From an uncultured virus (IMG/VR IMGVR_UViG_3300002030_000016) (Duplodnaviria; Heunggongvirae; Uroviricota; Caudoviricetes), in IMG/VR virus record IMGVR_UViG_3300002030_000016: DNA of 20,000 nucleotides, one strand, 5' to 3'. Positions within the stretch are counted from its first letter, which is position 1. Each line of letters begins with the position of its first letter. Of the stretch, positions 3,701 to 19,792 are shown one piece after another. The position numbers were made by a program, and so were the translations under genes. The notes beneath the pieces are model-generated. The model worked only from the letters and a program-made list of their open reading frames with translations. It searched no databases and was not told where the DNA came from.

Positions 3701-4560
3701 ATCGCTGCCCCGAACCGTCCAACCAAGATGGCCGCGATGACCAGAAGCGCATCGCCCAACGTGTCCAGATTTTCGGCAAGCATATCGATGCCGCTGGCAA
3801 GCGCCGTCGTGATGCCCAGAGACTGATCAGCAGAACCGATGTAACGGGTAAAGGCGTTGTTCAGCTTGGTCAGTGCGCGGGGGATGTTGCTTTGCATCCG
3901 CTCCGCGATGGCATCGGACTGGGCCGCGTAGCCGTCCAGAGCATTCAGGACCACATCGGTTGTGACCTTGCCTTCAGATGCGAGGACGCGAAGCTGGCCA
4001 ACCGTGACCCCCATGCTGGCAGCGATGGCGCGGGCGATTGCTGGGGCACCTTCCAAGACGCTGACCAGTTCATCCCCGCGAAGCGACCCACTCGCGAGTG
4101 CCTGACCCAGTTGCCGGATGGCAGCCGTCGCACCCGGCGCGGCCTTGGCGATGGTTTCCGTCAGGCGAAGAAGTTTGGCCTGCGACAGACCCAGACCGTC
4201 TGTCGCAACGATCAGGTTTGCGTATGTCTGGGTGACTGCAGTGATTTCAGAGTTTGAACGCTGGGCCACTTCATAAAGACGCTGCTGCGCTTCAGCGATG
4301 GCGTTTTCATCATCGATCACCCGGCGAAGGGTGTTGCCCAATTCAGACCATGCGTTGGCGTACTTCGTGACCAGATTCGCGGTCAGCCCAACGCCAATCA
4401 GCCTGATGGCAGTCTGCACCTTACGCGCCATGTCCTGAAACTGCTGACCAACATGGCGGGTGTCATTATCGACACCTTGGCGAAACCGTCTGCTGTTGTT
4501 TTGGTAGCCCCGGAAGTCGGCATCATAGACCGCGTTTAGGCGTTCAATTGTAGTTGGCAA
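736..4560 (-). CDS. Tail tape measure protein, 1274 aa
   Basis: TTG start with strong RBS (TAGGAGG). N-terminal tape-measure domain (AIRQLGQALASGSLRGDELVSVLEGAP), hydrophobic segment, long Ala/Glu/Arg coiled coil, and C-terminal GGSVRKGTPYIVGERRPELFVP motif. Follows the chaperone genes. Confidence 0.95.
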   Translation of the reverse strand: MPTTIERLNAVYDADFRGYQNNSRRFRQGVDNDTRHVGQQFQDMARKVQTAIRLIGVGLTANLVTKYANAWSELGNTLRRVIDDENAIAEAQQRLYEVAQRSNSEITAVTQTYANLIVATDGLGLSQAKLLRLTETIAKAAPGATAAIRQLGQALASGSLRGDELVSVLEGAPAIARAIAASMGVTVGQLRVLASEGKVTTDVVLNALDGYAAQSDAIAERMQSNIPRALTKLNNAFTRYIGSADQSLGITTALASGIDMLAENLDTLGDALLVIAAILVGRFGAAMIQADRTGRLLSGGMAALTSRAAASAVAVRGLQAALAFFGGPIGLAITAIAGAMYYLSNQTKSTSEKFEDLQTKITEAGEAASRLESVNRDLEQSKNDLKQASDRYKQAVEKEGETAQNAAALEISAIRARIEERQEEAKTIAAVLKVKQQELQIAASVAREALQKPILREIAPRGVRPGRGGARVPLVDQVSEEAALAALEKKAEQVRARIFAGENTEADNLFIQEFDALLRLEAEAKKTGKAIDDALNFDPKKSSFVPTTGTGDNEDASGGGGGADTEEKKTISNLTKIRRLKEDIAVIQREIMGVDVELANTAERRIDTEEKRLAIERAREDALTKGKTESEADEIAEVVRLQQRREASFALLNEYGRQRVEQARDERTASEEAARAEEEASLKRDVASERRLDAARNEARLREDLASIEEALGGFEGERAKTARDALETEQAKLQIARAYEDALRESDGDETYAKSAKAAEELNIQIRKANTLLTESEKLATDKAKADDDAAKKAEAATKKREDAQKRQKRLQEDLAAVQEQLGGFETQRAQTVKDALKLEQDRLSVTRAREDALKRSGGDVAYAEAVAEGTRLALELGNANRLLSEKEALTTASAKKAADARKKLNESMAGLRQNLADQIRLQAATAQGTEAYEAETRAIAARDKARAIADAAREGGVEVDEAAIRQQIVKLGEETAETERLTERLKDQLRIKERLEEIASGGGSRDDRLNVINDAYEQAGEATTLEEITAIIDERDRLILSLEREFEIQQAIRELGESATEDQIQRMRDLKGAEIDYRNSVETTNEKIEERRDKIEEGEKAQQQANEQLAQGFAGLLDDLDNVEDGLKKLGIQILKIIATGFFEKLLGVDGAGQSGGALGGLGALLGGGLSSIFGREHGGSVRKGTPYIVGERRPELFVPDTSGTIIPKVPGGGGAPQQNVYVTNNVDAGVTEPGMYAAIKQMGEKSVEMAVTQVASRSQDGGGYRRQLAGN

Positions 4561-4572
4561 TGGGTCAGCCTC

Positions 4573-4794
4573 CTAAACGGGGTGTTCGCCCCGTCTGATC
4601 AAATCAGCAGCGCGTCGATATTCTTCGTCTGTCATGGGCTTCCCTTTGGTCGTGCCGTTCTGCCCCCGTCGTCTGGCGTTGACGCCTTGGGTCAGTTCGA
4701 TGAATTCGGGAAGTGTCAAATCGCCCAATGCGCTTGGGCCGATTCCTAGTTCTGCGAGCGCCGCGAGCGCCTGCGATTTCGAGAGCGGTTCCGC
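4573..4794 (-). CDS. gpT-like extension of the tail chaperone reached by -1 frameshift (fusion 5213..4573, about 213 aa)
   Basis: The -1 frame after GAA AAA AAA AAG reads AEPLSKSQALAALAELGIGPSALGDLTLPEFIELTQGVNARRRGQNGTTKGKPMTDEEYRRAADLIRRGEHPV*. It has no obvious start or RBS of its own, and its TAG overlaps the tape measure RBS. Confidence 0.8.
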   Translation of the reverse strand, partial: AEPLSKSQALAALAELGIGPSALGDLTLPEFIELTQGVNARRRGQNGTTKGKPMTDEEYRRAADLIRRGEHPV

Positions 4795-5213
4795 TTTTTT
4801 TTTTCGAAGCGGGGGCTGTCTTCTTCCAAGACTTGGGCACCCATCATAGCAACGCCGATGATGGCCTGTGCGACCTTGGCCGCTTCCAAAAGGCCCATCC
4901 CGTCATCAGAGCAAATACGGTCCACGACGCCACGGGCTTCACCCGGCTGTGCGCCACCACCGATCAGGGCATGGCGGATAACTTCCGTCACGTCCTTTCC
5001 AGAGAAAGAACCGTCAGCCAAGTCCTTCCAAATCTGCCCAATGGGCTTGGGCCTCTTCCCGTCATCCCCGAAATATCCACAGACATCTTCAACTTCGAAG
5101 ATGTGTTCCATGCGAAGACGGAATTGACGTTCAGCGCCCAAGATATTGAGGGTAGTCCCGCCGCGATAAGCATTGCGACGGGCTTCCTTCTCGTGGTCGT
5201 TATCCCAGATCAT
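4746..5213 (-). CDS. Tail assembly chaperone (gpG equivalent, GTA-gp10-like), 155 aa
   Basis: Lies between the tail tube and tape measure genes. DVTEVIRHALIGGG motif; ends across an A10 run. Confidence 0.8.
   Translation of the reverse strand: MIWDNDHEKEARRNAYRGGTTLNILGAERQFRLRMEHIFEVEDVCGYFGDDGKRPKPIGQIWKDLADGSFSGKDVTEVIRHALIGGGAQPGEARGVVDRICSDDGMGLLEAAKVAQAIIGVAMMGAQVLEEDSPRFEKKKRNRSRNRRRSRRSQN
4794..4804 (-). promoter_or_regulatory. Programmed -1 frameshift slippery site (A10G, containing A AAA AAG)
   Basis: Canonical bacterial slippery heptamer in the correct frame at the conserved G/GT position. Confidence 0.8.
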
Positions 5214-5659
5214 GCAGCATCAGTCCAAGGGAACGCACCGTCGTTGCCGATGGTCAGCGAGACGGTCGCAACATTGGTCCGGTTGCCTTTGACTTCGAAG
5301 GTTTCGAGCAACCAGCTTCCAGCCCAGTGACCGCCGCCCTGTGCGCCAGTACCGCCAACAATCAGGCGACCAGCAGCAGATGCTTTCTGGGCGTGAAGCG
5401 TGCGGTAGAGCGACAAGGATTCGCGTGCCAGCTTGCCGGTCGCTTGGACGTTGCAAGACGTGGACAGCTTATGGCGAAGGATCACAGCCAAGTTGTCAGC
5501 GATTGGGTCGCAGTCGTAGACTGTATCGTTCGAAATTTCCGACTGGAAGTTTGCGGTCCACTCTTCAAGACCACATGGGTCCAGATAAGTCCCCGCGTTG
5601 TCCGGGTCTTCAAAAGCGAAGTATAGCTGCCCCGGTGCAAGGGTTGCAGGTGTGGTCAT
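5210..5659 (-). CDS. Tail tube (major tail) protein, 149aa
   Basis: PCGLEEWTANF...YDCDP...GSWLLETFEVKG...SLTIGNDGAFPW pattern; lies between terminator and chaperone genes. Confidence 0.85.
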   Translation of the reverse strand: MTTPATLAPGQLYFAFEDPDNAGTYLDPCGLEEWTANFQSEISNDTVYDCDPIADNLAVILRHKLSTSCNVQATGKLARESLSLYRTLHAQKASAAGRLIVGGTGAQGGGHWAGSWLLETFEVKGNRTNVATVSLTIGNDGAFPWTDAA

Positions 5660-6105
5660 GGTCGTTCCTCTTCGATGCTTGCGCCGAATGTGACGCGGAT
5701 TCGTTCAATGCCGGATAGGCGCTCCGGTAGTGATAGGGTTGTCGTGTGGACCAGCCGTGCCAGCGTGAAGCCGGTCAGCCGGAAAAGGTCGTTGCAGTGC
5801 GCGAAGTGAAGAAGTTTCTTCACCGTCCGCCCCTTCTCACGGACGAAGACATTTGCCGCTTCGCCATTCAGGCTGGTGTCATCAAGACGCGCCCAGATGT
5901 CGATGTGCAGTTCAAAATCATCCATGTCCAAGCCGTTTGCCCCGTCCTCGTTTACAGGCCCGGTGCCAACGGTGATGGCTGGATAGTCAGTCCCTTTGGG
6001 CAGCCAATCCATGTAGATCGATGCCCCAAACGACGGGTAGATGTCCGGGTTTCTCTTAAATTCAGCATGGACTGCTGCAATCAGTTCAAGGTCTGGCGTG
6101 GTCAT
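5656..6105 (-). CDS. Tail terminator/completion protein (DUF3168-like), 149 aa
   Basis: YPAITVG...ELHIDIWAR motif and synteny; ATGA overlaps at both ends. Confidence 0.8.
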   Translation of the reverse strand: MTTPDLELIAAVHAEFKRNPDIYPSFGASIYMDWLPKGTDYPAITVGTGPVNEDGANGLDMDDFELHIDIWARLDDTSLNGEAANVFVREKGRTVKKLLHFAHCNDLFRLTGFTLARLVHTTTLSLPERLSGIERIRVTFGASIEEERP

Positions 6106-6503
6106 GACGTTGACCTTCTGAAAGCAAGACGAAGGTTCTGCAGTGTTTCAGGCAGTTCCGTCTTGAACGATGGGGAAAGGTGCGGGCGCGGTTCCATGTT
6201 CGAGTGGCCCAACTCAAGGTTTTCCGAGTAAGGCACCGTGGACCCAACGCGGATGGGGAATTTGTTGGGTTCGAAGAAGGTCTTGTACGACTGGTGCAGT
6301 TCGCCGGTGTCCGCGTTCGGATATTCACCGGCAAGGGATGCGATGTGACCGGCACCAAGGATGGCACCTTCCAAGATGCCTTCAACCGTGGTGTCCTTTG
6401 TTCGCTCTGCTGCATCCAGCAGGATTCTGAACGCGCCTGCCCTGACCCTGCGTTCCATTTCTTTCTCTGAAATGAGGGTCTGGCGGACGACTTTGAAGGT
6501 CAT
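6102..6503 (-). CDS. HK97 gp10-like neck/tail component, 133 aa
   Basis: HIASLAGEYPNADTGELHQS...YSENLELGHSNMEPRPHL motif. Confidence 0.85.
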   Translation of the reverse strand: MTFKVVRQTLISEKEMERRVRAGAFRILLDAAERTKDTTVEGILEGAILGAGHIASLAGEYPNADTGELHQSYKTFFEPNKFPIRVGSTVPYSENLELGHSNMEPRPHLSPSFKTELPETLQNLRLAFRRSTS

Positions 6504-6796
6504 ACAGCGAAGGTTTCAGCCACTCGCCTAGCCCCATCGTCCAGCGCCTTCACCCGGTCTTTCGGGCCGGTGATTGGTCCGAACAGATACCGGCGGACTT
6601 TCCCCTTCGCAGGACAATCAGCAAAGAAGTACAGCGCATCCGCTGTCGAATCCCCACTTAGGCTGATCACTTCAGGGCGCTTCTTCTTCAGACGACCGGC
6701 AATCAGCGCCATCGTCTGGTTTGCGAAGTCAGCCATGTCTGGGCCAATCTTCTTGATTGCGCCGGGTGTGTCTTTCGGGGTCACTTTGAAAATCAT
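6500..6796 (-). CDS. Hypothetical protein in neck cluster, 98 aa
   Basis: ATGA-coupled to both neighbours; no family recognised. Confidence 0.7.
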   Translation of the reverse strand: MIFKVTPKDTPGAIKKIGPDMADFANQTMALIAGRLKKKRPEVISLSGDSTADALYFFADCPAKGKVRRYLFGPITGPKDRVKALDDGARRVAETFAV

Positions 6797-7191
6797 TTGG
6801 TGGGCCTCGCATGGACGGTGGCACCAGCCCGCGCAGGGTCGATGTCCATCACGCCAACAATTCGATAGACGATTCCCTGACCGCGCGGACCTTCCAACGA
6901 AACGTGGTCCCCGGTTTCAGGGTCGATAGGAACGCCGTGAAGCAGGAAATAGATGCCAACATCTTCGTCTTCACGGGACGCTTCAGAGCCTTGCCGCGTC
7001 ACCCTGATGCGGGATGCAGCAGCTTCGTAGCTTTCGACAATCCCGATGATGGGATGGTCAACAGGCAGTCCCCTGATGGGGTTGCCGTAGCGGTCTTGGG
7101 TGTCCCGCGCAGCACGGGTCAGTTTGCCCGGTAGCAGATCATCCTTGAACGCTTCGTTCATAATCTCTGGGATGTCGTCCAAGAAACTCAT
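6793..7191 (-). CDS. Putative head closure (stopper) protein, 132 aa
   Basis: Likely start MSFLDD at 7191 (AAGGTG upstream). C-terminal GDHV...YRIVGVMDIDPARA pattern and synteny. Confidence 0.7.
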   Translation of the reverse strand: MSFLDDIPEIMNEAFKDDLLPGKLTRAARDTQDRYGNPIRGLPVDHPIIGIVESYEAAASRIRVTRQGSEASREDEDVGIYFLLHGVPIDPETGDHVSLEGPRGQGIVYRIVGVMDIDPARAGATVHARPTK

Positions 7192-8407: not shown

Positions 8408-9337
8408 TTACACTCCATCCACGTACCGCATCGACGCTTCCCGGCGCAGGTCGAAGCCACCTACGCGGAAGATGCCGGGGCGGTGATAGGTCAGCGGGCC
8501 GGTACGCATCGGCACGACGAAACGGTGTTCCATCGGGATGTGCATCTTCGCCTTCCGGGGGTCTTTGGAGTAGATCACCATCCGGTCAGTGGACCCGGCA
8601 CCTTTGCCCTGCAACTGCGAAATCGCCATGATTTCGATGTTGCGACCCGTGCGGGTCGTGGTGGCGTTGGTGCGCTTCACGAAGTCCAGCACAGTTTCAG
8701 TCGTGTACTGGTTGAACTGCGTTTCAGCCAACTTATCAAACTGTGCCGTAGGCAGCAGGATGTAGTTTGGCAGTTCACGTTCCTTCGTCGCATCAACGAT
8801 GGCAGCGATTGGCGTTTGAACCAATGCGACCATCTGTTCAGCAGTCGAAGAAGCGATGGTCTGGGTCGCGGTGCTGCGCGTGACGTTCGGGTGGTCCAGA
8901 AGACCGTGGAAGCCCTTGGTCGCATCACCTTCGTAGCAGACCTTTTGCATGAACCGTTCGGATTCTTCGATAGCGCCGTTGATCCCTTCGTTCATGATGT
9001 TGACGCCAAGACGTGCGCCGTTGTGCGTCGTCTCGATGTCGTAGTTGTAGCCAATGGCCGCCATGTGGATTGGCTGCGTGTGACGGTCCATTTCCATCGA
9101 CACGACCGGCACTTCGTTCGCTTGGGCGTTATACCATTCGGCATTGCCTGCGCGTGCGATTGACCGATATTCGACCGTGCGTGCCCAATCGTCGGCGCTG
9201 TTGTCAACGTCAACAAGTTGGCGGAAACGGATGTCTTCCAGCAACGTCTGCTCATACACTTCACGTTCGAAGTGCGTGAGTTCCGGCACTGAGAATTCCA
9301 GCGCCTGCTGGTCCGTCAGCGTTTCGATATTGTACAT
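8408..9337 (-). CDS. Major capsid protein (DUF2184 family, HK97 fold), 309 aa
   Basis: YEGDATKGFHGLLDHPNV, TVLDFVKRTN, GAGSTDRMVIYSKDP and terminal MRYVDGV motifs; follows the DUF2213 and decoration genes. Confidence 0.92.
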   Translation of the reverse strand: MYNIETLTDQQALEFSVPELTHFEREVYEQTLLEDIRFRQLVDVDNSADDWARTVEYRSIARAGNAEWYNAQANEVPVVSMEMDRHTQPIHMAAIGYNYDIETTHNGARLGVNIMNEGINGAIEESERFMQKVCYEGDATKGFHGLLDHPNVTRSTATQTIASSTAEQMVALVQTPIAAIVDATKERELPNYILLPTAQFDKLAETQFNQYTTETVLDFVKRTNATTTRTGRNIEIMAISQLQGKGAGSTDRMVIYSKDPRKAKMHIPMEHRFVVPMRTGPLTYHRPGIFRVGGFDLRREASMRYVDGV

Positions 9338-9355
9338 CTGGGGTTCTTCCCTTCC

Positions 9356-9814
9356 TTACTTGAGACGCAGCTTGGCGACTTGGCCAGACGCTGCACTCGA
9401 TTCCCAGACGCCATTGGCGACCAGATCAGTTGTGGCGTCATCGGTCGTACCGAAAGCGCCGGTGGTGAAGTTGAACGCAACCGGGTCGCGGTAGGCCACA
9501 GCCTCCGAAACCGTCACGTAGACGCAGCCCCGATACAGGACCAGCGCGTTATCGCCTGCGACATACTGGTCTTCACCGTTGCCAACAGGGATGTTCTTGT
9601 CCACGCAGGCAACGCCCACGAAGTCTTGGCCCGTAGCCGTGGGCAGCTTGGCGGTTTGGTCCGCCGTGCCAGCGACCACTGCAACGCCAAACGCCACCGC
9701 ACCAGAGCCGGTTTCGATGACGCGCGTTGAACGGTCGTTGGGTTCGCCAGTGGCGATGTTGCCGGGAAGCCCAATTGGGGTTTCATCGGTGTAGGTTGTT
9801 GGAACGCCGCCCAT
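9356..9814 (-). CDS. Capsid decoration/cement protein, 152 aa
   Basis: AVAFGVAVVAG...DFVGVA...YVAGD..VLYRGCVYV pattern; lies between the protease and capsid genes. Confidence 0.8.
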   Translation of the reverse strand: MGGVPTTYTDETPIGLPGNIATGEPNDRSTRVIETGSGAVAFGVAVVAGTADQTAKLPTATGQDFVGVACVDKNIPVGNGEDQYVAGDNALVLYRGCVYVTVSEAVAYRDPVAFNFTTGAFGTTDDATTDLVANGVWESSAASGQVAKLRLK

Positions 9815-10399
9815 TTATTGAGCCTCCTTCTGACCAGCCTGACGGGCGCGGAAACCTGCAGCAGCATCAGCCACCGTGGTTTTCTTCACACCATCGCCGG
9901 TGGCGATTGCGGAACGGATAGGATCGCCAGACGCGGCACCGCCACCAACGTCTGCAGTGTCGAAGGTCGCTTCATAAGCGCCCCGGATGAAGGCCGCATC
10001 GCGGTCTTTCACGAAGTCTTCGCCGCGCTTGTCGGACAGCGCCTTTGACATACCGGCAAGGATTTCCTTGTCGATGGTTTCGGTGTCTTTGCCGGTCCAT
10101 TCGTAGGAATCGCCAAGGACAGAACGGGCTTCATCCGCTTTGGCCAGCTTCGCCGTGACGGCATCGTCCAGCTTTGCAGCATCAGCAGCATCAGCTTTCA
10201 GGACTTCGATTTCGCCGTCTTTCTTCGAAATCTCCTCCTTCAGCTTCTCTTCGTCTTCGCCAGCCTTTTTCTTGGCATCGACCAATGCTTGGTCAGCCGC
10301 TGCCAGTTGGGCTTTCAGGTCTTCAATGACAGGTGCGGCTGCATCATTCGCAGCAACAACCTTATCGCCAACGACCACGTTGGTCAGTGATCCACTCAT
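9815..10399 (-). CDS. Putative nested in-frame scaffolding protein, 194 aa
   Basis: Internal ATG at 10399 preceded by GAGGA, just after the protease domain. Confidence 0.55.
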   Translation of the reverse strand: MSGSLTNVVVGDKVVAANDAAAPVIEDLKAQLAAADQALVDAKKKAGEDEEKLKEEISKKDGEIEVLKADAADAAKLDDAVTAKLAKADEARSVLGDSYEWTGKDTETIDKEILAGMSKALSDKRGEDFVKDRDAAFIRGAYEATFDTADVGGGAASGDPIRSAIATGDGVKKTTVADAAAGFRARQAGQKEAQ

Positions 10400-11653
10400 A
10401 GTGTCGTCCTCTTGGTTTGAAGTGTCGATAATGGGGGTTGCGCCCCAAGGTGCAGGACTGACGGAATCGCCAATCTTGCACAGGTGCCCAGCGCGTCCAC
10501 GCTCGACAATGGCGATGTGGTTGACGCGAATATCGCGCTGCACCGCATCGTAAGTTTCACCATCAGCGGTAGTGCCGGGGGTGAAATCCAGCTTGCAGTC
10601 GTATCCGACTGAAAGTTCTCTTGTTCCCGCTTGTACCAGTTCGATTGCGGCACGATCTTTCAAGATCAGCGGGATGTTGATGACATCCAGAACGCCGTTC
10701 GTCTTCTTCGTGACGGCTGTGGATGCTTCACCAACGGAAAGGTCTTTGTAGTTGTCAGGCGTCACACCCAGCGGGGGATGATCGATGGTGACAGTCGCGT
10801 GGCTGTAGGTCCGCAAGGAATCGGTCGCGAAGACTTCATCAGCAGGCCGGTAGACCTTGACCGTCTTTTCGCTGCCATCAGCGTTCTTGTGGTCCTTGAT
10901 CCCCACTTCCTTCGCCAGATAGATTTGGATTCCCGTGCGGGCCACATTGGCTTCAGCAACCATCGACCCATCGCCAATGATCTTGGTTCCGGCAAGGTCT
11001 GACAGGAACCGAGCGCGGTCTTCGTGAAGGCTTTCACGGTAGTCATCGTCCAGTTCTTCGAACTTCTCTGGACCCAGCTTGATTTCGCCTTGGAAGGGTT
11101 CGATCTTGTCCAGATCAACATCGCCCAGATCATAGGTGATCGTGACGTGGGGCGTGTAAGGCGTGTGCGAGTGCTTGGCCCCATTCCAGACCATATCTTC
11201 ATTGCGCCACTGCAGATCGTGGTTCGTGAACAGCAGGACCACTGCTTCCCCGAATTTTTCCATCAGGCGGGGACCGCCTTTGGGGATGTCCAGTTCGCTT
11301 TGCCACGGGGCACCCATCTTCATCCAATCCACAGCCTTCTGCGAATACATGATGGTGACGTGCATGTCGTCCGGCTGCAGGGTGGTCTTGAAGCCCTGTT
11401 CCTTGGCCCATGCTTGGATTTCAGCACCGTTCAGGACCGGGCGATGGACGTACAAAGTGCGGGGCGCTGCGTCCGTCGCTCTGGCATCCCGTGCGCTTTG
11501 GCTAATCTTCTCCGCTTCAGCGCGGAAGGCATCGCGACCGGCGCTGTCTTTATCCAGCATCCTTCCGTAGAAAACAGCGCCGCCGTTCTTGTCAATCGAC
11601 CAGCCCTTGCCGGTCACTGGGTCGAAATCACCAGACTGAATGGTTCCGGTCAT
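9815..11653 (-). CDS. Multidomain head protein: Acb1-like 2H phosphodiesterase + DUF2213 prohead protease + scaffold-like tail, about 612 aa
   Basis: Preferred start 11653 (AAAGGA, 7 nt, ATG). DUF2213 motifs VARTGIQIY, VYRPADEVF, TIDHP, RELSVGY, NHIAIVERGRAG at about 10463-10984. Two HVT motifs upstream; acidic coiled-coil C-terminus. Confidence 0.9.
   Translation of the reverse strand: MTGTIQSGDFDPVTGKGWSIDKNGGAVFYGRMLDKDSAGRDAFRAEAEKISQSARDARATDAAPRTLYVHRPVLNGAEIQAWAKEQGFKTTLQPDDMHVTIMYSQKAVDWMKMGAPWQSELDIPKGGPRLMEKFGEAVVLLFTNHDLQWRNEDMVWNGAKHSHTPYTPHVTITYDLGDVDLDKIEPFQGEIKLGPEKFEELDDDYRESLHEDRARFLSDLAGTKIIGDGSMVAEANVARTGIQIYLAKEVGIKDHKNADGSEKTVKVYRPADEVFATDSLRTYSHATVTIDHPPLGVTPDNYKDLSVGEASTAVTKKTNGVLDVINIPLILKDRAAIELVQAGTRELSVGYDCKLDFTPGTTADGETYDAVQRDIRVNHIAIVERGRAGHLCKIGDSVSPAPWGATPIIDTSNQEDDTMSGSLTNVVVGDKVVAANDAAAPVIEDLKAQLAAADQALVDAKKKAGEDEEKLKEEISKKDGEIEVLKADAADAAKLDDAVTAKLAKADEARSVLGDSYEWTGKDTETIDKEILAGMSKALSDKRGEDFVKDRDAAFIRGAYEATFDTADVGGGAASGDPIRSAIATGDGVKKTTVADAAAGFRARQAGQKEAQ
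11039..11467 (-). other. acb1: Acb1-like (T4 57B-type) 2H phosphoesterase domain within the protease ORF
   Basis: DDMHVTIMYS (HVT at 11354-11362) and GAKHSHTPYTPHVTITY (HVT at 11141-11149), 71 residues apart, matching the Acb1 pattern HxTxxYS ... GAxHxxxxYTPHxTxxY. Confidence 0.8.
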
Positions 11654-11671
11654 GTTGGGTTCCTTTCCCAT

Positions 11672-11881
11672 CGAAGGGGGTCATGTTTTTTGCCCCCTGA
11701 CATTTCAGGTGACAGTCAAATCAAGTTTTCAGGGACATCCCCGGCGAAAACTAAAGTTTTGGCTTCCACTCTTGGTGGTCCGCTGGGCTGGGACACCCAC
11801 CGCCTGTGCGCCACTTCAGGTTTTGAGTGACCATGTTCATTTTTTCGACCAACTTAGCGGTCAAGAAAATGAAGTGGGTCA
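11672..11881 (-). promoter_or_regulatory. Structured intergenic leader of the head genes
   Basis: Inverted repeats at about 11828-11881, 11724-11752 and 11675-11698. Confidence 0.4.
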
Positions 11882-12178
11882 GGTCTGCTTCCATTCGTTG
11901 AAGACCGGCAACGGCTGATCTTCGGTTCCTTTGGTCAAGACCACGCGCCAGTATCTGGTGCCGGTCCAGTCCGCATCGATGATGGGGAAATAGGCCGCTG
12001 GGTCGAAGCCCCGCCGTTCCCCCGTCAATGTTTCAACCAGCGTTTCCCCTTGAGGGTCGCTGTAGATGGCAATCGACGCTGCAGTGACGTTCGCCAAATC
12101 GCGGGCATTGTTCGAATTGATGACCAGCCGGATAGCTGTTTCATCACCGGACGCCCGACTGATCTTGATTGGTCGCAT
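11879..12178 (-). CDS. Small beta-sandwich protein, possibly a BppU-N-like adaptor, 99 aa
   Basis: GDETAIRLVI...DLANVTAASIAIY...DADWTGTRYWRVVLTKG strand pattern; starts 2 nt after the upstream stop. Confidence 0.55.
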   Translation of the reverse strand: MRPIKISRASGDETAIRLVINSNNARDLANVTAASIAIYSDPQGETLVETLTGERRGFDPAAYFPIIDADWTGTRYWRVVLTKGTEDQPLPVFNEWKQT

Positions 12179-12180
12179 GG

Positions 12181-12882
12181 TCAGTCCGCCCTTATAATGA
12201 TTGGGGTTTCGTCAAACGAAACCGTTGGATCACCAAGCAACGCGATGGCGAAATCAGTGTCCTGCACCGTTGTCTGGATGGTGGGTGGTTCTTCAAAGAA
12301 CACCCGGATTTCAGCGGGTTCTTCCATGACAAGTTCGATGTCCTGTGCATGGAAGCACCCGTCGCCACCTTCAGCCGCCTGACGAAGCAGTTCTTCCTGT
12401 TCGTCAGACAGCCCCCCACCGCCGCCCCCGGCGTCGTCTTGCCTCAGAACCTGCAGGCTATCGGCAAACTGGATACGTGGCGAAACGCCTTGCGACGTGA
12501 CGCGGCTGGTATCGAAATCCACACCATCTTCGTTGGGATAGATGTTCCCGATGATGACAGTCCGGTGTGGATAGTTTGCTGGGACGAAAGACCACTGGTT
12601 CGTCCAGCGAAGATCGAACGTCGCGTAAACTTCATCCCCGTTCTGGTCCAGCCCGCGAAAGGCACCGCCGGACTTTGACATGGCCAGCGTGGCCCACTTG
12701 TTGGTGGCGTGCCAGTCCACCCACCGTGACCACAGTTCAGTGGTCGAAAAAGACGTGTCCGCTTCAGGCGATGGACCCGGTGTGTAAATCCGGTATCCAT
12801 CGCCATCCGTGGTGAACGATCCACCGTCCGGCACTTCGTAAACGCGCCGCCGGTCCCCGTCGAAGTGAAGGCTTGCCGCCAT
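12181..12882 (-). CDS. Putative virion structural protein, 233 aa
   Basis: FDGDRR..., ELWSRWVDW...GG...TNQWSFVP...IIGNIY domain, Gly linker, acidic strand-like tail. Confidence 0.65.
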   Translation of the reverse strand: MAASLHFDGDRRRVYEVPDGGSFTTDGDGYRIYTPGPSPEADTSFSTTELWSRWVDWHATNKWATLAMSKSGGAFRGLDQNGDEVYATFDLRWTNQWSFVPANYPHRTVIIGNIYPNEDGVDFDTSRVTSQGVSPRIQFADSLQVLRQDDAGGGGGGLSDEQEELLRQAAEGGDGCFHAQDIELVMEEPAEIRVFFEEPPTIQTTVQDTDFAIALLGDPTVSFDETPIIIRAD

Positions 12883-12885
12883 CTG

Positions 12886-14490
12886 CTAGGACGCAGAATA
12901 GGACGGGTCAGCCTGTGCAGCGATGACTTGGGTTTGGTTCGCTGCAGCCATCGTGAACGCCGCGTTGTCCGGTTCAATCGCACCGGGCTTGTTCCACGTC
13001 AGGCGAAGCGGAAGTGGCGTGTTGGGCGTGTGGCTATCCACGTTGTAGGTGGAATAGGCGATGACGATGCTGTTGGTCGCTGCCACCGCGATGTCCTGCT
13101 GATCAGAACCCGATTCATCCTGCAGATACGTTGGCGCTGATGCGCCGAAAGTGTCTTCGTGGATAATCGAGAACGTCCCGCCTTGCGCCAGTGTTGGTGC
13201 CGTAACGGTCAGCGTAAAGATAGCAGGCCAACTTTGGACCGCGCCACTCAGATCAGCCAAGTTCAAGTTGTTCCGCTGGGCGCTGTCGTAGTTCTCAAGG
13301 TAGTAGCCGTCCAGCGTCAGAAGGTCGCCAGAGAACGCGGAAATTGGCGGGGTCTTGTCACCCCTGATCTGTGGACCAGTGCCATCATCGTTGATGTTTA
13401 CCGGCTGGCGAAGCTGATAGTGCAGCTTGGTGTGAACATCATCGTTGGTCTGGGTGTCAGCATCCACAAAACCCGTGAAGCTGTAGAGCGTGCCATTCAC
13501 ATCGCCATCAAACAGGGAATCGGCATCCACGTTGATGTCGATGCCAGCATAGATGCCGCCTGCTGCGACCGTGGCGTCAGACACAAGCTGCGCGCCAGTA
13601 CCCGGATCAGCCAACTTCGGATCAATCGCGTTGTTCGATGCGACTGGGTAAATCTCAGCATATTCGACCGAAACAGTTTCCTGCAGGTGCGTCTTGCCGG
13701 GTTCAAGGCAACGGAACGTCCAGTCACCCACGTTGTTGACCGCGTTGTCCGTATCGACCAGCAGAACCAACTGATTGATAAAGCCTTGGGTCACAGCCGC
13801 CGTGGGGGCGTCCATAGCCGCGTCCGTTGATGGCCAGAAGTAGAATTGGTCAGTTGCCGCGTTCAGCGGGTTAGAGCGAGCGCAGAAGTAGACCCGGCGG
13901 GCCGCTGACGTGGCGCTGTCCCTGATTTCCATCGCCATGTCGCGAAGGGCGTTCAGGGTGTCCGTGTCGTGCGGTTCCCAGCCGTTCAGGCAGGCGAGCG
14001 ACTTAGCCCGTGGTTCAATCGACGTGAACATCTTGTCGTAGATGTCCAGATCACCAGTATCCCACTGGTCAACGACTGCAGAAGCCCATGTGATCGCGCC
14101 AACACCGTCGATGAACGACAGGGCACCGGCTTCAAGAAACTGGAAGGTCTTTTTGAACGCCGTGATGTTGATGTCCGCCCCAGCCGCTTCAGTGACTGGC
14201 GAACCGGTCAGGGTCGTGAACGTGACTGCGTTGGCTGTGACCGCTGTGACCGTGACCGTGACGCCTTCATTCGCGCCGTTGGCCGCGTTCGAAATCTTGA
14301 TCACATCGTCAACTTCGATGGGACGCTTCACGATACCGCTGACTTCGGAACTGGCAGTGAAATCCGTGGTCGTTGACGTGATCTGGGTTCCTGCTGCATC
14401 GACAGCGATGTCTGTTCCTTGGAAGTCAACCACATGGAATTTGTAGTTGGTGCCAAGGGTTAGGTCTGCTTTTGCTGTAATTTTTGGCAT
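12886..14490 (-). CDS. Putative virion appendage/structural protein, 534 aa
   Basis: Thr/Ala/Asp-rich beta protein in the structural operon; ends AQADPSYSAS. Confidence 0.7.
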   Translation of the reverse strand: MPKITAKADLTLGTNYKFHVVDFQGTDIAVDAAGTQITSTTTDFTASSEVSGIVKRPIEVDDVIKISNAANGANEGVTVTVTAVTANAVTFTTLTGSPVTEAAGADINITAFKKTFQFLEAGALSFIDGVGAITWASAVVDQWDTGDLDIYDKMFTSIEPRAKSLACLNGWEPHDTDTLNALRDMAMEIRDSATSAARRVYFCARSNPLNAATDQFYFWPSTDAAMDAPTAAVTQGFINQLVLLVDTDNAVNNVGDWTFRCLEPGKTHLQETVSVEYAEIYPVASNNAIDPKLADPGTGAQLVSDATVAAGGIYAGIDINVDADSLFDGDVNGTLYSFTGFVDADTQTNDDVHTKLHYQLRQPVNINDDGTGPQIRGDKTPPISAFSGDLLTLDGYYLENYDSAQRNNLNLADLSGAVQSWPAIFTLTVTAPTLAQGGTFSIIHEDTFGASAPTYLQDESGSDQQDIAVAATNSIVIAYSTYNVDSHTPNTPLPLRLTWNKPGAIEPDNAAFTMAAANQTQVIAAQADPSYSAS

Positions 14491-14496
14491 GTCTCG

Positions 14497-14658
14497 TTAT
14501 CCCTTCACGCGCTTCAGCGCGCCGCCTTCGCCGGTTTCAAACGCAGCGGAAGTCCGCTTCCCGTCTTCGGTGTAGAGACAGCCACCTTTCAGGGTGAACG
14601 TCCCTTTGCTGTTCTTGTATTTGACGCCCTTGACGCCCTTCTTTTCATCCTTCGGCAT
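14497..14658 (-). CDS. Small basic protein, 53 aa (absent from ORF track)
   Basis: RBS TAGGAGG. MPKDEKKGVKGVKYKNSKGTFTLKGGCLYTEDGKRTSAAFETGEGGALKRVKG* exactly fills the gap between two large genes. Confidence 0.8.
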   Translation of the reverse strand: MPKDEKKGVKGVKYKNSKGTFTLKGGCLYTEDGKRTSAAFETGEGGALKRVKG

Positions 14659-14669
14659 GTGCCAACCTC

Positions 14670-16955
14670 CTAGTTTGCGTATGATGGGTCCGGCTCAAAG
14701 ACCAATGGAATTGTCTGATCTGTCGCTTCAAGGAATATCGGTAGTTCTTGCCGGACCCATCCAGCGCCACCGATTGTGATCTTCACAGGAATCCTGTTCG
14801 CAAAGTCGTATTCGTAGACGAACGAACCACCGGAAACGGATGGTTCGTAGGCCACGGTTTGCCGTCCCCGGCGGATACGAACTTCAATCCCGTCAGGAAG
14901 CCCGTTCAGCGTGATTGCCACCGGGCGCGCGATGAACGGGAAGCTATATCCAGCCGTGACCGCTGTGTTGGCGTAGCTGGTGTACAGGTATTGCGACAGC
15001 CCAGCCGTGATTTTCGTGATCCTGACCCGCACTTGCAGCAGTTCCCCTGCTGGCAGACCTGCCAACTGGGAAGACATCGTACTGGGTGCGCCCCATGCGG
15101 TCCAAGCCCCACCCGGACGCCGCATCGATCCTTCTACATCGAAGGCACTTGTCGTCACGCCGGTCTTGGACAGTGACCCGGTGAAGTTCGTGATGCCGCC
15201 GTGGATGCGACCCGTCAAAACGACCTGATCACCTACGTTTTCGATGTAGAGACGGTTATTTTGGTTGAAGACGATCTTGCCGGTTTCGACCGTCTTTTCC
15301 AGATAGTCTTCATCCAACTCTGGCGACATCCTGAATTCGACACGACCAGCAGTTTCATCTTCATTCAGGAAGATGTGGTTCGATGTGCAGTCAGTCCCCG
15401 TTCCAACTGCAGTGGTCAGGCTGCCCTTGACCATCGTGTTTTGGTAGACCGAACCAAAGCCGAATTCACAGGATGTGCCGTTGCTCTGGGTCTGATCGAA
15501 CTTCACGTTGGTCATTTCCAGATTTCTTGAAGTGGTGGACAATTCTGCCACCCTGTTCAGAAGCTGGCCTTCGATCAGGAAGTTGCCCAACCTAGTCCCC
15601 GAACCTTGGTTGTTGGTGATGTGGTCCATTTCACCATTGGCGTTGTAGATCACGTCAGAAACAGTGACGCCCTGCGACCCGGACGTGACATAGGCGATGC
15701 ACTCACGGTGCGCCGCGTAGCCTTCAGTCACAGTCATCCCTGATCGAAGGTGGCTGATCGAAATATTGCTGGCGTTGGATGCCCGGAAGCACGAAGTCTT
15801 CGCGCTGGATTGGGTCTGCGCGCGTGACCCTCTAGCGCAGGTGTGCAGGCCATCGACGGTGCATTCACCGGCACCCCCAGCGAAATACATCGCCGTATTA
15901 TAACCAGCCAAATACAGATCGAAGAAATCGACATTCTGGGAAGAAAGGCCAATGGTGCCACGTCCAGTGTTGCCATTCGACATATTCGGCATCATCGCCA
16001 GAACTTTTTCGAAATACCCCCCGGTATTGTTGAAGCACTCGATACCGTAGTCAGTGGACCCCGTGTATCGGTTGATGATCGCCAGATTTTTCACTTCAGG
16101 CGGCACTGTGGCAGATGACATGATCAGTTCCCGCGCTGAACTGAGGATCACGTCATGAAGCGTCACCTTGCCCGCGTTGACGTTGAAGTTGATTGGGCTG
16201 TTCTGGCCCCCGGTTTCCACAACAACCTGCTTCCAAATTTGGCCTGCCCCGTTGTCGAAATCGCAGTTGAACGACTGGCCAGCAGCAGAACCGGCGCTGC
16301 CAATAGAAACGCACTCGAAATCCATCCGACCTGACAACGCCAAATCGAAGTAAGGCACCGTGGTTGTGCTGTTGGCGACCTGAATTTGAATGCTGGGGAC
16401 GAAGATTTCCGTCCCAGATGGGGGAATCCACCCGCCGGTCCCGTCACCAAAGACAATCCGGTTATTCGCCAGATCATGTTCGAACGTGCATCCGAAGATT
16501 TCATGACCAAAGGAATCGGCCAGATTGTCCACCCGGACTGCCAGCCGGTGGATTGGGGTTCCATCCCGCAAGGTATCTGGGGTGGGCAGGTCCAAGAACA
16601 CGCCGCCCAGCGACTGATACTGCGACCCGCCGTCAGTGGGCAACGTGAAGGTCTGGTTCGCGTTGCCGTTGGATGTCCCAATCGAAATCAGCTTTCCGCG
16701 TAGCTTCATCCGACCACCAGCTTCCAAACGGATGCGAGGAAGCGATGTCCCAGTGGAACCTACCCGGATGAACCGGGGTGTGTTGGTCAGGTTTTCACAG
16801 AAGAATTCGCCGTCTGTGATGCAGTCCCACCGGCGGATGTCATCCGTCGATTCATCGATTGTGATGCGTGCTGATTGGGTCAGCGAAATGATGTCATTAT
16901 TGGCCGCGCCAAGGGCGCTATAGTTGCTGTCTGAAGTGACAGTGATCGTGGCCAT
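14670..16955 (-). CDS. Putative fibre/spike protein with a predicted parallel beta-helix, 761 aa
   Basis: Asn/Ser/Thr/Gly-rich repeating strands (e.g. KVTLHDVIL, CTVDGLHT, ISISHLRS, VTVSDVIY, LEMTNVKF), an FGDG-containing insert, and a C-terminal Ig-like domain ending EPDPSYAN. Confidence 0.65.
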   Translation of the reverse strand: MATITVTSDSNYSALGAANNDIISLTQSARITIDESTDDIRRWDCITDGEFFCENLTNTPRFIRVGSTGTSLPRIRLEAGGRMKLRGKLISIGTSNGNANQTFTLPTDGGSQYQSLGGVFLDLPTPDTLRDGTPIHRLAVRVDNLADSFGHEIFGCTFEHDLANNRIVFGDGTGGWIPPSGTEIFVPSIQIQVANSTTTVPYFDLALSGRMDFECVSIGSAGSAAGQSFNCDFDNGAGQIWKQVVVETGGQNSPINFNVNAGKVTLHDVILSSARELIMSSATVPPEVKNLAIINRYTGSTDYGIECFNNTGGYFEKVLAMMPNMSNGNTGRGTIGLSSQNVDFFDLYLAGYNTAMYFAGGAGECTVDGLHTCARGSRAQTQSSAKTSCFRASNASNISISHLRSGMTVTEGYAAHRECIAYVTSGSQGVTVSDVIYNANGEMDHITNNQGSGTRLGNFLIEGQLLNRVAELSTTSRNLEMTNVKFDQTQSNGTSCEFGFGSVYQNTMVKGSLTTAVGTGTDCTSNHIFLNEDETAGRVEFRMSPELDEDYLEKTVETGKIVFNQNNRLYIENVGDQVVLTGRIHGGITNFTGSLSKTGVTTSAFDVEGSMRRPGGAWTAWGAPSTMSSQLAGLPAGELLQVRVRITKITAGLSQYLYTSYANTAVTAGYSFPFIARPVAITLNGLPDGIEVRIRRGRQTVAYEPSVSGGSFVYEYDFANRIPVKITIGGAGWVRQELPIFLEATDQTIPLVFEPDPSYAN

Positions 16956-18059: not shown

Positions 18060-18304
18060 GACGGGTTTTCATCCAGATAGTCATTCGCCGCTTCGTTGCC
18101 TATCGTGATGTTGTGAAGGATCAAGTCCATCGCGATTTCCGGGGTGATCACATCCGGGTCTTGAACCGCGATAAGCTGCCCCACCATCTGCGACACGATG
18201 GCGAGCATTTCAGGGGGCTTGATGTCCCCGTCAAATGGCTGCATCGCATCAGCGAGCGCATCGCGACACGCCCGGTGCTTTTCGCTTATTGGAACCGTTC
18301 CCAT
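18056..18304 (-). CDS. Hypothetical helical protein, 82 aa
   Basis: TGATG coupling to the upstream gene, with GAGGA upstream. Confidence 0.7.
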   Translation of the reverse strand: MGTVPISEKHRACRDALADAMQPFDGDIKPPEMLAIVSQMVGQLIAVQDPDVITPEIAMDLILHNITIGNEAANDYLDENPS

Positions 18305-19455
18305 CAGGCGTCGTCCTCTTCTACGGGTTCGAATCTTATCGGCACGATGCGGCTGCCTCTGGGCTTCGATCTGATGAACATGAATTCGATCTGTTCGTCA
18401 GTATGGAAGCTGTAGACGGACACATTGCATCCAGTCTCCAAAGCATTGACCATCGCCCCGCGCCGCGTCTCCGATACGGTCAGCGCAAGGATTTTGCCGG
18501 TTTGATCCATCAGGCCAAACCCAGACCCACGGTCGATTTTCTCAAACCCAGACACCTGCCCCCTGAAGAACTGGACCCGATAGTCGCCTTCTTCGGTTCG
18601 GACTATCCAGCTTCCGGGGCCATTCTGTAGCAACATCCGGCTGGAAAAGACGCCTTCTTCTATGTTGGAAACCTTGGCTACAGCACCGGGGATGGTCGCG
18701 CCGGGGGTAACGGTGATGTCCTCTGATACGGCTGTGATCCCCGCATCCATTGACCGCAACGGCTCTGGTTCCACCGGGTCTTTTGCCTTCCCAGCTTCCA
18801 ATCTCACTGTCGAATACGAGAATGCAGGGTCATCCGACTTCTGGGCGGCACGCCGGTCTTGCTGCTCACGTTGCCGCCGCCACTGCTCTTGGACGCTGGG
18901 CATGTTGCGTTCGTGTTCAAGGTCTTCTGAGGAAATCCCCCAGTCATCATCCGTGAAAACCACGGATTCGTCCCCACCGGGTTTCGCGGCATCCACGCCA
19001 ACCGTGATGGGTTCATCTTCTGGGACTTCGAAGGGGTTTGGTTCCTGATCAAGTTGCCTCGCCAGATTTTGCTGGGCAATCTGCTGGGCCTTCTTCGCTG
19101 AAGTAACTACTGGCGATTCTACCACGACACCCTGCTGGGCGGCATGTTCGGAAATTTTTTCGCCTAGTTCCGCAATGCCTTCTTTCGCAGCATCCAATTC
19201 ATCCGGGGATGGGGTCTTGATCTTCAGTGCCCCGCGTTTCCTAACCGGGACATCGTGTCGCGGCCCGGTGCATTTTTTACCCCGATCAGTGAACGTACCC
19301 ACCGGCGAACCGGACTTGACCTTCCACTTCACCTTCGCGCCACAGGCACAGACGGTGGTTTTCACCAACCCGGCTTGGACCTCTGCATCTTCAGAGAGTT
19401 CAGTAATCGTGTCCGGCTGCGCTATGCAGGTTCCGGCTTCGGTCATCGCTTCCAT
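18304..19455 (-). CDS. Hypothetical protein, about 383 aa (Cys-containing N-terminus, acidic low-complexity middle, beta-rich C-terminus)
   Basis: Start trimmed from 19773 to MEAMTEA (19455 or 19446) to avoid overlapping the lipoprotein gene. Confidence 0.7.
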   Translation of the reverse strand: MEAMTEAGTCIAQPDTITELSEDAEVQAGLVKTTVCACGAKVKWKVKSGSPVGTFTDRGKKCTGPRHDVPVRKRGALKIKTPSPDELDAAKEGIAELGEKISEHAAQQGVVVESPVVTSAKKAQQIAQQNLARQLDQEPNPFEVPEDEPITVGVDAAKPGGDESVVFTDDDWGISSEDLEHERNMPSVQEQWRRQREQQDRRAAQKSDDPAFSYSTVRLEAGKAKDPVEPEPLRSMDAGITAVSEDITVTPGATIPGAVAKVSNIEEGVFSSRMLLQNGPGSWIVRTEEGDYRVQFFRGQVSGFEKIDRGSGFGLMDQTGKILALTVSETRRGAMVNALETGCNVSVYSFHTDEQIEFMFIRSKPRGSRIVPIRFEPVEEDDA

Positions 19456-19465
19456 AGCCCTGCCC

Positions 19466-19792
19466 CTATGCCTTGGGCGCTTGCTGTGATGGTGCGCCGG
19501 TGCATTGGAATTCGAACGTGAAATCCCAGAGGAAGCACCCATAGTCGCTTGGCGCAACGCAGTTTCGCTTGAACCCACCGAATGGCTCGGCGCTTTCATA
19601 GCCCCAGACGCCGCATTTCTGTTCAGCGATGGATTGCATCCCGCTGACCACTGAAGCTGCTGGGGGTTGCTCTGCTGGGCCATGCTGGACGCCCACCGTC
19701 GCATCCGCACGGGAACCGCCGGTTGCGAACGTCTGGGTCTTAGGGGCGCACGACAAGAGCGCCACAGCGCCAAGAACGATTATCTTTTTCAT
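19466..19792 (-). CDS. YecR-family lipoprotein, 108 aa
   Basis: RBS AAAGGA. Signal peptide MKKIIVLGAVALLSC with lipobox Cys; ATGGSRADATV...KCGVWGYESAEPFGG..C..C..EFQC motifs. Confidence 0.8.
   Translation of the reverse strand: MKKIIVLGAVALLSCAPKTQTFATGGSRADATVGVQHGPAEQPPAASVVSGMQSIAEQKCGVWGYESAEPFGGFKRNCVAPSDYGCFLWDFTFEFQCTGAPSQQAPKA

Follow-up and report, generated by a model that had tools for sequence, protein, structure and literature searches.

An Acb1-type 2H phosphodiesterase domain joined to the prohead protease-scaffold of an uncultured phage, and its possible loading into the capsid

Why would a phage build a probable enzyme against immune signals into one of its own head-assembly proteins? 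The question is raised by a 20,000-nucleotide stretch (the window) of an uncultured tailed virus, IMG/VR record IMGVR_UViG_3300002030_000016, in which one long open reading frame (ORF), P0001, lies among the head genes. An initial annotation, made from the letters alone, had described this single ORF as a domain of ~143 residues resembling Acb1, an enzyme that erases the signals of CBASS, the antiphage signaling systems based on cyclic oligonucleotides, followed by a DUF2213 protease-like domain and a scaffold tail. The ORF call, Pfam and PHROG 530 bear out this layout (Table 1). What the analysis establishes is which domains and folds are present, that the catalytic residues are conserved and under purifying selection along with the rest, how the genes are ordered and how the architectures are distributed. 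As to what the fusion is for, we see about an even chance that the three-part head-assembly protein loads an Acb1-type enzyme into the capsid, and that the protease frees the enzyme to destroy CBASS signals.

The fused frame was recovered repeatedly. An ORF identical to P0001 is present in two further IMG/VR contigs, and a 72%-identical fused ORF with the same gene order was found in a 72-kb viral contig (L004). In addition, positions 9700-11833 are covered by a contig of 15,252 nt that comes from an independent study and crosses the junction in frame, with 89 substitutions and no frame-breaking insertion or deletion in 9815-11568. Because the identical ORFs, the L004 relative and the independent contig all keep the fused frame, we give next to no credence to the idea that faulty assembly or sequencing has joined two domains that are really separate genes. 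No stop codon or frameshift lies between the domains, a possibility that the initial annotation had raised. The variant from the second study (~96% identical) lacks 24 nt around 11651-11691, which removes the ATG at 11671, and carries a compensated 1-nt deletion/insertion pair at 11569/11573. Translation probably begins at the ATG at 11653, giving 612 aa, since AAGGA precedes this codon and the variant contig is without the one at 11671; 11653 is also the end coordinate that the initial annotation had chosen. Residue numbers used here count from 11671.

Selection has acted on each of the three parts. In comparison with the L004 gene, the ratio of nonsynonymous to synonymous substitution rates (dN/dS) was 0.19 over the Acb1 domain, 0.16 over the DUF2213 domain and 0.23 over the scaffold tail, and all three are under purifying selection; the linker gave 0.51 over 17 codons. 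Conservation is lowest in the N-terminal extension, with 40% amino acid identity to L004 versus 78-81% in the two domains. By alignment this extension is present only in this phage and L004, and the fusions of the Oceanicaulis type lack it. The extension was considered as a remnant of a portal linker, residues 35-72 aligning weakly (E ~0.01) in a database of 265 gathered proteins; these matches include the first residues of the Acb1 domain itself, and the idea was dropped.

What kind of enzyme does the N-terminal domain represent? Residues 71-213 matched Pfam Acb1 (PF23474) with an E-value of 2.2e-38, scoring 131.7 bits where the cut-off is 27 and covering profile positions 1-143 of 144, and Acb1 was the only 2H family of Pfam matched at E <= 0.01. 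The span 11039-11467 first assigned to the domain corresponds to residues 69-211, in agreement with the Pfam placement, and translation places the two motifs then singled out, MHVTIMYS and YTPHVTITY, at residues 103-110 and 172-180. Neither HxT motif varies in a 22-sequence alignment or in 12 protease-fused proteins, and both align with the motifs of 7t26, the Acb1 of phage FBB1. A structure model of residues 60-225, based on the 22-row alignment, had a predicted local distance difference test (pLDDT) score of 84.8, with low confidence from model residue 156 of 166. Foldseek matched this model to FBB1 Acb1 (7t26/7t27) with an E-value of 3.4e-8 and a template modelling (TM) score of 0.73 on the target, to the BCSR5 phage phosphodiesterase (PDE; 9q2y/9q2g) with an E-value of 1e-6, and to E. 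coli LigT with an E-value of 1.1e-5 and a TM score of 0.50. The two solved phage cyclic-nucleotide PDEs were the best structural and sequence neighbors, ~6 and ~3 Z units above the LigT-type rows. Thus, by Foldseek E-values and TM scores as well as by Z scores, the domain is closer to solved Acb1 than to LigT, and the kinship with LigT or RNA-repair 2H enzymes that the initial annotation had weighed was not found. Acb1 is described with a flexible C-terminal lid, an aromatic residue of which stacks on the substrate; in the alignment the last Trp of the FBB1 chain pairs with Y211, and the consensus of the portal-fused relatives has Trp at that position. Base-stacking aromatics beyond the lid residue have been named for Acb1 (PMC13577500). 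By family and fold, the domain is probably an Acb1-type 2H PDE.

A 2H domain might nevertheless act on another substrate: RNA 2',3'-cyclic ends, RNA in the manner of a Usb1-like RNase, 2'-5' oligoadenylate or the cyclic oligoadenylates of type III CRISPR. For this clade the 'anti-CBASS' label would then be wrong. RNase-like or 2'-5' PDE roles have been proposed for portal- or MuF-fused 2H domains (PMC5512222), and identity to assayed Acb1 is ~24%. Viral 2H PDEs are described as diverse and structurally heterogeneous in the available text of a preprint (10.1101/2025.08.21.671373); their cleavage specificities have been assayed, the broadest pattern being that of Acb1 (editorial PMC13728456). 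We consider a different substrate rather improbable, given the structural ranking, the single Pfam 2H family matched and the finding that none of the other window ORFs among the 19 scanned with Pfam and PHROG matched an RNA ligase or another nucleotide/RNA-metabolism family.

The remainder of P0001 belongs to the head. Pfam DUF2213 (PF09979) covers residues 233-403 with an E-value of 1.3e-49 and 168.9 bits, the cut-off being 22. A match to PHROG 530 ('head maturation protease') spans residues 227-577 (E 2.8e-71) and thus extends far enough to assign the tail to the protease-scaffold family. H298, S354 and N384-H385 are invariant in 30 sequences, in the order His-Ser-His, and H298, S354 and H385 are candidate catalytic residues; in T4 gp21, H85A/S140A is inactivating according to the available text of PMC12991175. 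Foldseek with the DUF2213 model returned nothing at E <= 0.001, and VIA-align recovered the gp21/herpesvirus protease fold. A tblastn search with the domain matched 1,526 of 50,697 phage records, including phage T1 (E 2e-11) and the BASEL Drexlerviridae JulesPiccard (E 2e-21) and KarlJaspers, annotated 'prohead protease'. Because the search reaches these records, DUF2213 is assigned by homology to the protease-scaffold family of phage T1 and Drexlerviridae. T1-like proteins consist of an N-terminal protease and a C-terminal helical scaffold, as laid out in the available part of a preprint (10.1101/2023.05.21.541620). The composition of the P0001 tail and the absence of a separate scaffold gene match this layout; no such gene lies between the fused ORF and the cement and capsid genes. 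In another member of the gathered set, P0238 (551 aa), a Peptidase_S78 domain (HK97-type prohead protease, E 3.2e-29) stands N-terminal to DUF2213, giving two protease-like domains in one protein.

Put together, these parts suggest a mechanism. The fused protein would be made late, together with the capsid genes, and its protease-scaffold part would take the entire chain along into the procapsid as this assembles. During maturation, proteolysis would release the folded 16-kDa PDE, and the released enzyme would degrade CBASS-type cyclic oligonucleotide immune signals. Two places of action are conceivable: the producing cell, late in infection, and, for enzyme kept in the head, the next cell, which it would enter together with the ejected DNA. 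The covalent link would matter mainly as a ride into the procapsid on a built-in protein. Of these steps, we infer the activity of the enzyme and its substrates, the cut that parts the domains, the loading of the capsid and the ejection.

How often, and on which proteins, does the Acb1 domain occur in such a position? Loci were gathered with Acb1 peptide patterns typical of this clade, taking the best 80 of 94 from genome_contigs and the best 80 of 502 from viral_contigs, and were surveyed with our own hidden Markov models (HMMs), independent of gene calls and protein length. The 80 genome loci comprised 71 with portal and Acb1, 6 with another long N-terminal part and Acb1, 2 short forms and 1 Acb1-DUF2213 fusion (L016, Oceanicaulis). 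For the 80 viral loci the numbers were 76, 0, 1 and 3; two of these three fusions are the window's own sequence and the third is L004. Overall, the domain sits on the C-terminus of a PF06381-type portal in 147 of 160 loci, as the initial annotation had anticipated in stating that related domains occur fused to portals. Fusion to the protease was found in 4 of 160, 3 of them of this lineage, and a triple fusion of portal, Acb1 and DUF2213 in none.

Protein searches gave a similar picture. In a word-indexed search, 4 of the 120 clusters listed carry both Pfam domains (P0001-P0004), among them an Oceanicaulis protein that NCBI calls simply 'DUF2213 domain-containing protein'; the others are mostly PF06381 portals with Acb1 or DUF2213 alone. 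An exhaustive search of 1.84 billion representatives returned 12,752 proteins at E <= 0.001, and local HMMs found both domains in 13 of the best 150. A Pfam scan of 40 selected proteins likewise showed both domains in 13 (E <= 0.001), with Acb1 above its cut-off in 9; the remaining 4 have a weaker 2H-like match, and 3 of these keep two H-x-[TS] motifs. The 265 gathered proteins divide into 133 with portal and Acb1, 107 with DUF2213 only, 16 with Acb1 and DUF2213, and 9 with Acb1 and neither partner. Some are more elaborate. NUDIX precedes Acb1 and DUF2213 in P0157 and P0193, and Acb1 lies N-terminal to the XkdF-type protease Peptidase_S78_2 in P0261, P0265 and P0086, the last with ChaB and an ADP-ribosyltransferase in addition. 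Portal-Acb1 proteins are extended by a Zeta toxin (P0228), an ADP-ribosyltransferase (P0229) or a PBECR3 nuclease (P0264, P0181), and portals of the PF04860 and Mu types also carry the Acb1 domain. From these architectures, the portal C-terminus appears to be a general attachment point for effector domains. As for the survey of Acb1-DUF2213 architectures envisaged at the outset, the combination does occur in public protein sets, and by these counts it is rare (4 of 160 loci).

This distribution bears on the reason for the fusion. The protease is one of several carriers, the others being the portal C-terminus (147 of 160 loci) and another long N-terminal protein (6 of 160). Since the portal carries the domain so frequently and other effectors also join portals, a logic of attachment to a protein of the capsid interior explains more cases than one specific to the protease. 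The portal C-terminus faces the capsid interior. Packaging into the virion, injection and degradation of defence nucleotides were predicted in 2017 for 2H domains on MuF or portal proteins, according to the available text of PMC5512222.

Several points weigh against the proposed mechanism. A free late protein might degrade a diffusible signal equally well, and the fusion might serve co-expression only. The available text of PMC12991175 reports CBASS firing as a late event, so that an enzyme present at time zero would be less needed. Identity to assayed Acb1 enzymes is ~20-24%, and a direct phmmer comparison with 7t26 gave an E-value of 0.003. The literature search found no experiment on activity, cleavage or packaging for P0001 or its portal-fused relatives. 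As for a cleavage site, one [LIV]xE motif (L215-H216-E217) lies in the linker; it carries little weight, because the 618-aa protein contains seven such motifs. Finally, the locus proportions are within-clade figures and no census, because clade-typical Acb1 patterns and best-ranked loci were used.

Alternatively, the partner may have been chosen because CBASS senses it. The DUF2213 protease-scaffold would then be the trigger, the tethered enzyme would act in the cytoplasm of the producing cell, and loading would be incidental. We regard this as unlikely, though deserving serious consideration. It draws on the kinship of DUF2213 with the T1/Drexlerviridae prohead proteases and on the preprint 10.1101/2023.05.21.541620, the available part of which describes CBASS-resistant Drexlerviridae isolates, each with a substitution in the gene of the scaffolding prohead protease, as well as CBASS-dependent toxicity upon expression of the scaffold domain. 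Moreover, in the available text of PMC12991175 the T4 gp21 protease cuts the activation loop of the CD-NTase and thereby switches CBASS on, and in three of our proteins Acb1 precedes a second prohead-protease family, XkdF/S78_2. However, a trigger-based explanation leaves the portal-fused majority (147 of 160 loci) unaccounted for, the protease fusion being confined to 4 loci, 3 from one lineage, and a covalent tether is of no obvious benefit against a freely diffusing second messenger. The available texts of PMC9117128 and PMC12991175 make no mention of such a fusion, and the words 'portal' and 'fused' are absent from that of PMC9117128. A more specific version, which we find equally doubtful, is that of a self-disarming trigger: this lineage and, independently, the XkdF-type phages would have fused alarm and antidote adaptively, so that the two are made 1:1, simultaneously and inseparably by recombination. 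Of the initial proposal that the antidote is tethered to its trigger, the connection of T1-type and gp21 proteases with CBASS thus finds backing in preprints; the trigger as the reason for the fusion is not established. Note that sensing of the protease and loading into the capsid are mutually compatible.

Could the linkage be without function altogether? Drift of a gene boundary between packed head genes, by loss of a stop and gain of a new start, would produce a fusion in which the enzyme is no better than its free form. The local arrangement speaks for this: portal-Acb1 and DUF2213 genes are typically ~30 nt apart, adjacent ORFs share the frame in 44 of 77 pairs, to which genomes contribute 11 of 28 and viral contigs 33 of 49, and three short forms resembling stand-alone enzymes occur among the 160 loci. 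Yet the fused form is kept from 72% down to ~30-40% identity, it recurs in 13 of the best 150 cluster representatives, and all its parts are under purifying selection. The boundaries do not appear to drift freely either, because none of the 160 loci holds a triple fusion although a single stop separates the genes in many. We therefore judge a functionless linkage very unlikely.

The neighboring genes also point to where the domain came from. Among portal-Acb1 loci that also hold DUF2213, that domain starts less than 150 nt after Acb1 in 77 of 141. The linker of P0001 (SLHED-RARFLSD...) reads as the end of a portal-type Acb1 running directly into the sequence with which stand-alone DUF2213 proteins usually begin, without the Met, and the portal gene lacks an Acb1 domain both in L004 (480 aa) and in the Oceanicaulis locus. 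The simplest history suggested by these sequences would be that the module, once the tail end of the portal gene, crossed a gene boundary and became the front of the protease gene. A quick maximum-likelihood tree of 88 Acb1 domains (12 fused, 67 of the 133 portal rows, taken as every second one, and 9 others, with the 4 weak-2H proteins left out) needed 4 label changes. Multiple origins of the protease fusion were considered on this basis; a single clade is not rejected by the approximately unbiased (AU) test (p 0.289), and we therefore make no claim on the number of origins. Same-frame pairs are often split by a single stop, as in L007 (4633-6441 and 6445-7575; loci L005-L164). Programmed read-through at the in-frame stop was considered and dropped; many of the viral contigs are near-copies, and the pair counts ignore kinship.

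How does P0001 compare with known systems? T4 57B Acb1, FBB1 Acb1 (7t26/7t27) and the BCSR5 PDE (9q2g/9q2y) share the 2H fold, the HxT motifs and the compact size with its N-terminal domain. In contrast, they are stand-alone enzymes of ~140-165 aa, and the P0001 domain, at ~20-24% identity, makes up the N-terminal portion of a head protein of 618 aa. The portal-Acb1 proteins (PF06381/DUF1073 with PF23474), some of which NCBI names 'anti-CBASS protein Acb1 family protein', belong to the same Acb1 clade, with 50-60% domain identity and usually an adjoining DUF2213 gene. There the domain ends the portal, whereas in P0001 it begins the protease-scaffold, and the portal of L004 is without it. The portal is present in 12 copies per virion.

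A portal of known structure belongs to this group: Pam3 portal gp3 (8hds; ON014755.1 1588-3453, L165) has an Acb1-like domain at residues 446-619 (E 5e-35). The available text of the Pam3 virion-structure paper lists barrel and crown as inner parts of the portal and makes no mention of an Acb1-like domain, and the 8hds chain is absent among the structural matches to our domain model. The 2H domain of Pam3 is thus presumably missing from the deposited model; mature virions may have lost it or contain it in disordered form.

The polyvalent proteins of PMC5512222 share with P0001 an effector domain covalently joined to a head-internal protein, in P0001 within one ORF. In the available text of that paper MuF and portal are the carriers, and looking there for 'prohead', 'protease' and 'scaffold' turned up no fusion of this kind. 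Polyvalent proteins are described there as having 2 to 15 domains. P0001 has one effector-like domain; its relatives P0157 and P0193 add NUDIX, and portal forms add Zeta toxin, ADP-ribosyltransferase or PBECR3. The T1/Drexlerviridae protease and T4 gp21 resemble P0001 through homology of DUF2213 to the T1 type, a fold shared with gp21 and a similar layout of protease followed by scaffold. In the records examined no attached Acb1 domain was seen, the protease-domain matches beginning at about residue 216-226 of P0001; these proteins have been implicated in CBASS sensing, not evasion.

Proteins that counter defence and ride in the virion provide a further parallel to the cargo role predicted for P0001. 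T4 IPI* and the Dar proteins of P1 are capsid-delivered anti-defence proteins. T4 Alt is cited as capsid-delivered in the available text of PMC5512222, and the ejectosome protein Gp15 of ICP3 inhibits the CBASS effector CapV according to the available part of a preprint (10.1101/2025.07.23.666291). Gp15 blocks the effector, whereas the Acb1-type enzyme of P0001 is predicted to degrade the signal. Acb1, portal-2H fusions and the T1-type protease were already known. No description of Acb1 joined to a DUF2213 protease-scaffold was found in the literature searched, with one possible exception, a preprint whose supplementary list may include it. Extra domains 'including ... proteases' are reported for 13 of 75 viral 2H PDEs in the available text of 10.1101/2025.08.21.671373.

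P0001 joins two lines of work, Acb1 as an eraser of CBASS signals and the reports from 2023-2026 of the prohead protease/scaffold as sensed by CBASS. As a natural fusion it offers a direct test system for the connection between protease and CBASS, which is the main value of the finding, and the comparative pattern gives a general lead to the routes by which phages bring in enzymes against host defence. Should the enzyme prove inactive on cyclic oligonucleotides, the 'Acb1 family' label on hundreds of portal proteins would need revising.

Table 1. Features of the fused ORF and the adjoining head genes (window positions; residues counted from the ATG at 11671)
Feature	Position	Strand	Basis or remark
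Whole fused ORF P0001	9815..11671	minus	uninterrupted frame, 618 aa from ATG at 11671; stop codon 9815-9817
N-terminal extension, residues 1-65	11477..11671	minus	fast-evolving; alignment
Acb1-type 2H phosphodiesterase domain, residues 71-213	11033..11461	minus	Pfam PF23474
First catalytic HxT motif, H104-V-T106	11354..11362	minus	translation; aligns with H-T-T of FBB1 Acb1 chain
Second catalytic HxT motif, H175-V-T177	11141..11149	minus	translation; aligns with H-I-T of FBB1 Acb1 chain
Linker, residues 214-232 (SLHEDRARFLSDLAGTKII)	10976..11032	minus	comparison by eye with relatives; low pLDDT at model end
DUF2213 domain, prohead serine protease of T4 gp21/herpesvirus assemblin fold, residues 233-403	10463..10975	minus	PF09979
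Candidate catalytic residues of DUF2213	H298 (10778-10780), S354 (10610-10612), H385 (10517-10519)		
Scaffold-like tail, residues 404-618	9818..10462	minus	20% Ala, 13% Asp, 10% Lys
Cement protein gene, directly downstream of fused ORF	9356..9814	minus	Pfam Phage_cement, E 1.4e-29
Major capsid protein gene	8408..9337	minus	Pfam Major_capside, E 1.8e-61, and PHROG 264

Downstream of the fused ORF, Pfam and PHROG place genes for cement, major capsid, adaptor, tail proteins and tape measure on the same strand. The gene content is that of a head-tail block from a tailed phage, and the source is classed as an uncultured marine-type phage. Within 9300-12300, no promoter-like site was found, and four terminator-like sites, all on the plus strand, were within shuffled expectation. 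NCBIfam and PADLOC scans gave no match for P0001.

In L004, the portal gene is followed by a gene for a MuF and MPTase-PolyVal protein, then by one for a 257-aa Acb2/Tad1 protein, and then by the Acb1-protease gene. The first (3798-5735) encodes a MuF-like protein of 645 aa, which could be a polyvalent head protein; its MPTase-PolyVal match is weak (E 0.0013; 19.2 bits, below the 27.5-bit cut-off). The second (6325-7098) has an Acb2/Tad1 hairpin domain (Pfam E 2.4e-12), making it a second candidate anti-signaling gene in the interval between portal and protease. Over the first 160 residues this 257-aa protein shares 45% identity with part of a 489-aa ORF of the window (18304-19773), in which no match to the Acb2/Tad1 hairpin was found. 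Since the Acb1 module is attached to portals and to proteases of two families, and has MuF and Acb2/Tad1-like genes as neighbors, the gene order suggests that the stretch between the portal and capsid genes is a hotspot of virion-associated anti-signaling cargo.

Directly upstream of the Acb1-protease gene, the window contains four consecutive minus-strand ORFs (99, 233, 534 and 761 aa; 11879-16955). Pfam, PHROG, NCBIfam and PADLOC gave no match for any of them, and an ESM Atlas search with the 761-aa and 534-aa ORFs returned best scores of 0.77-0.80 and no named family. This ~5-kb block is absent from the otherwise syntenic L004 and may, to judge from this comparison, be a variable accessory insertion.

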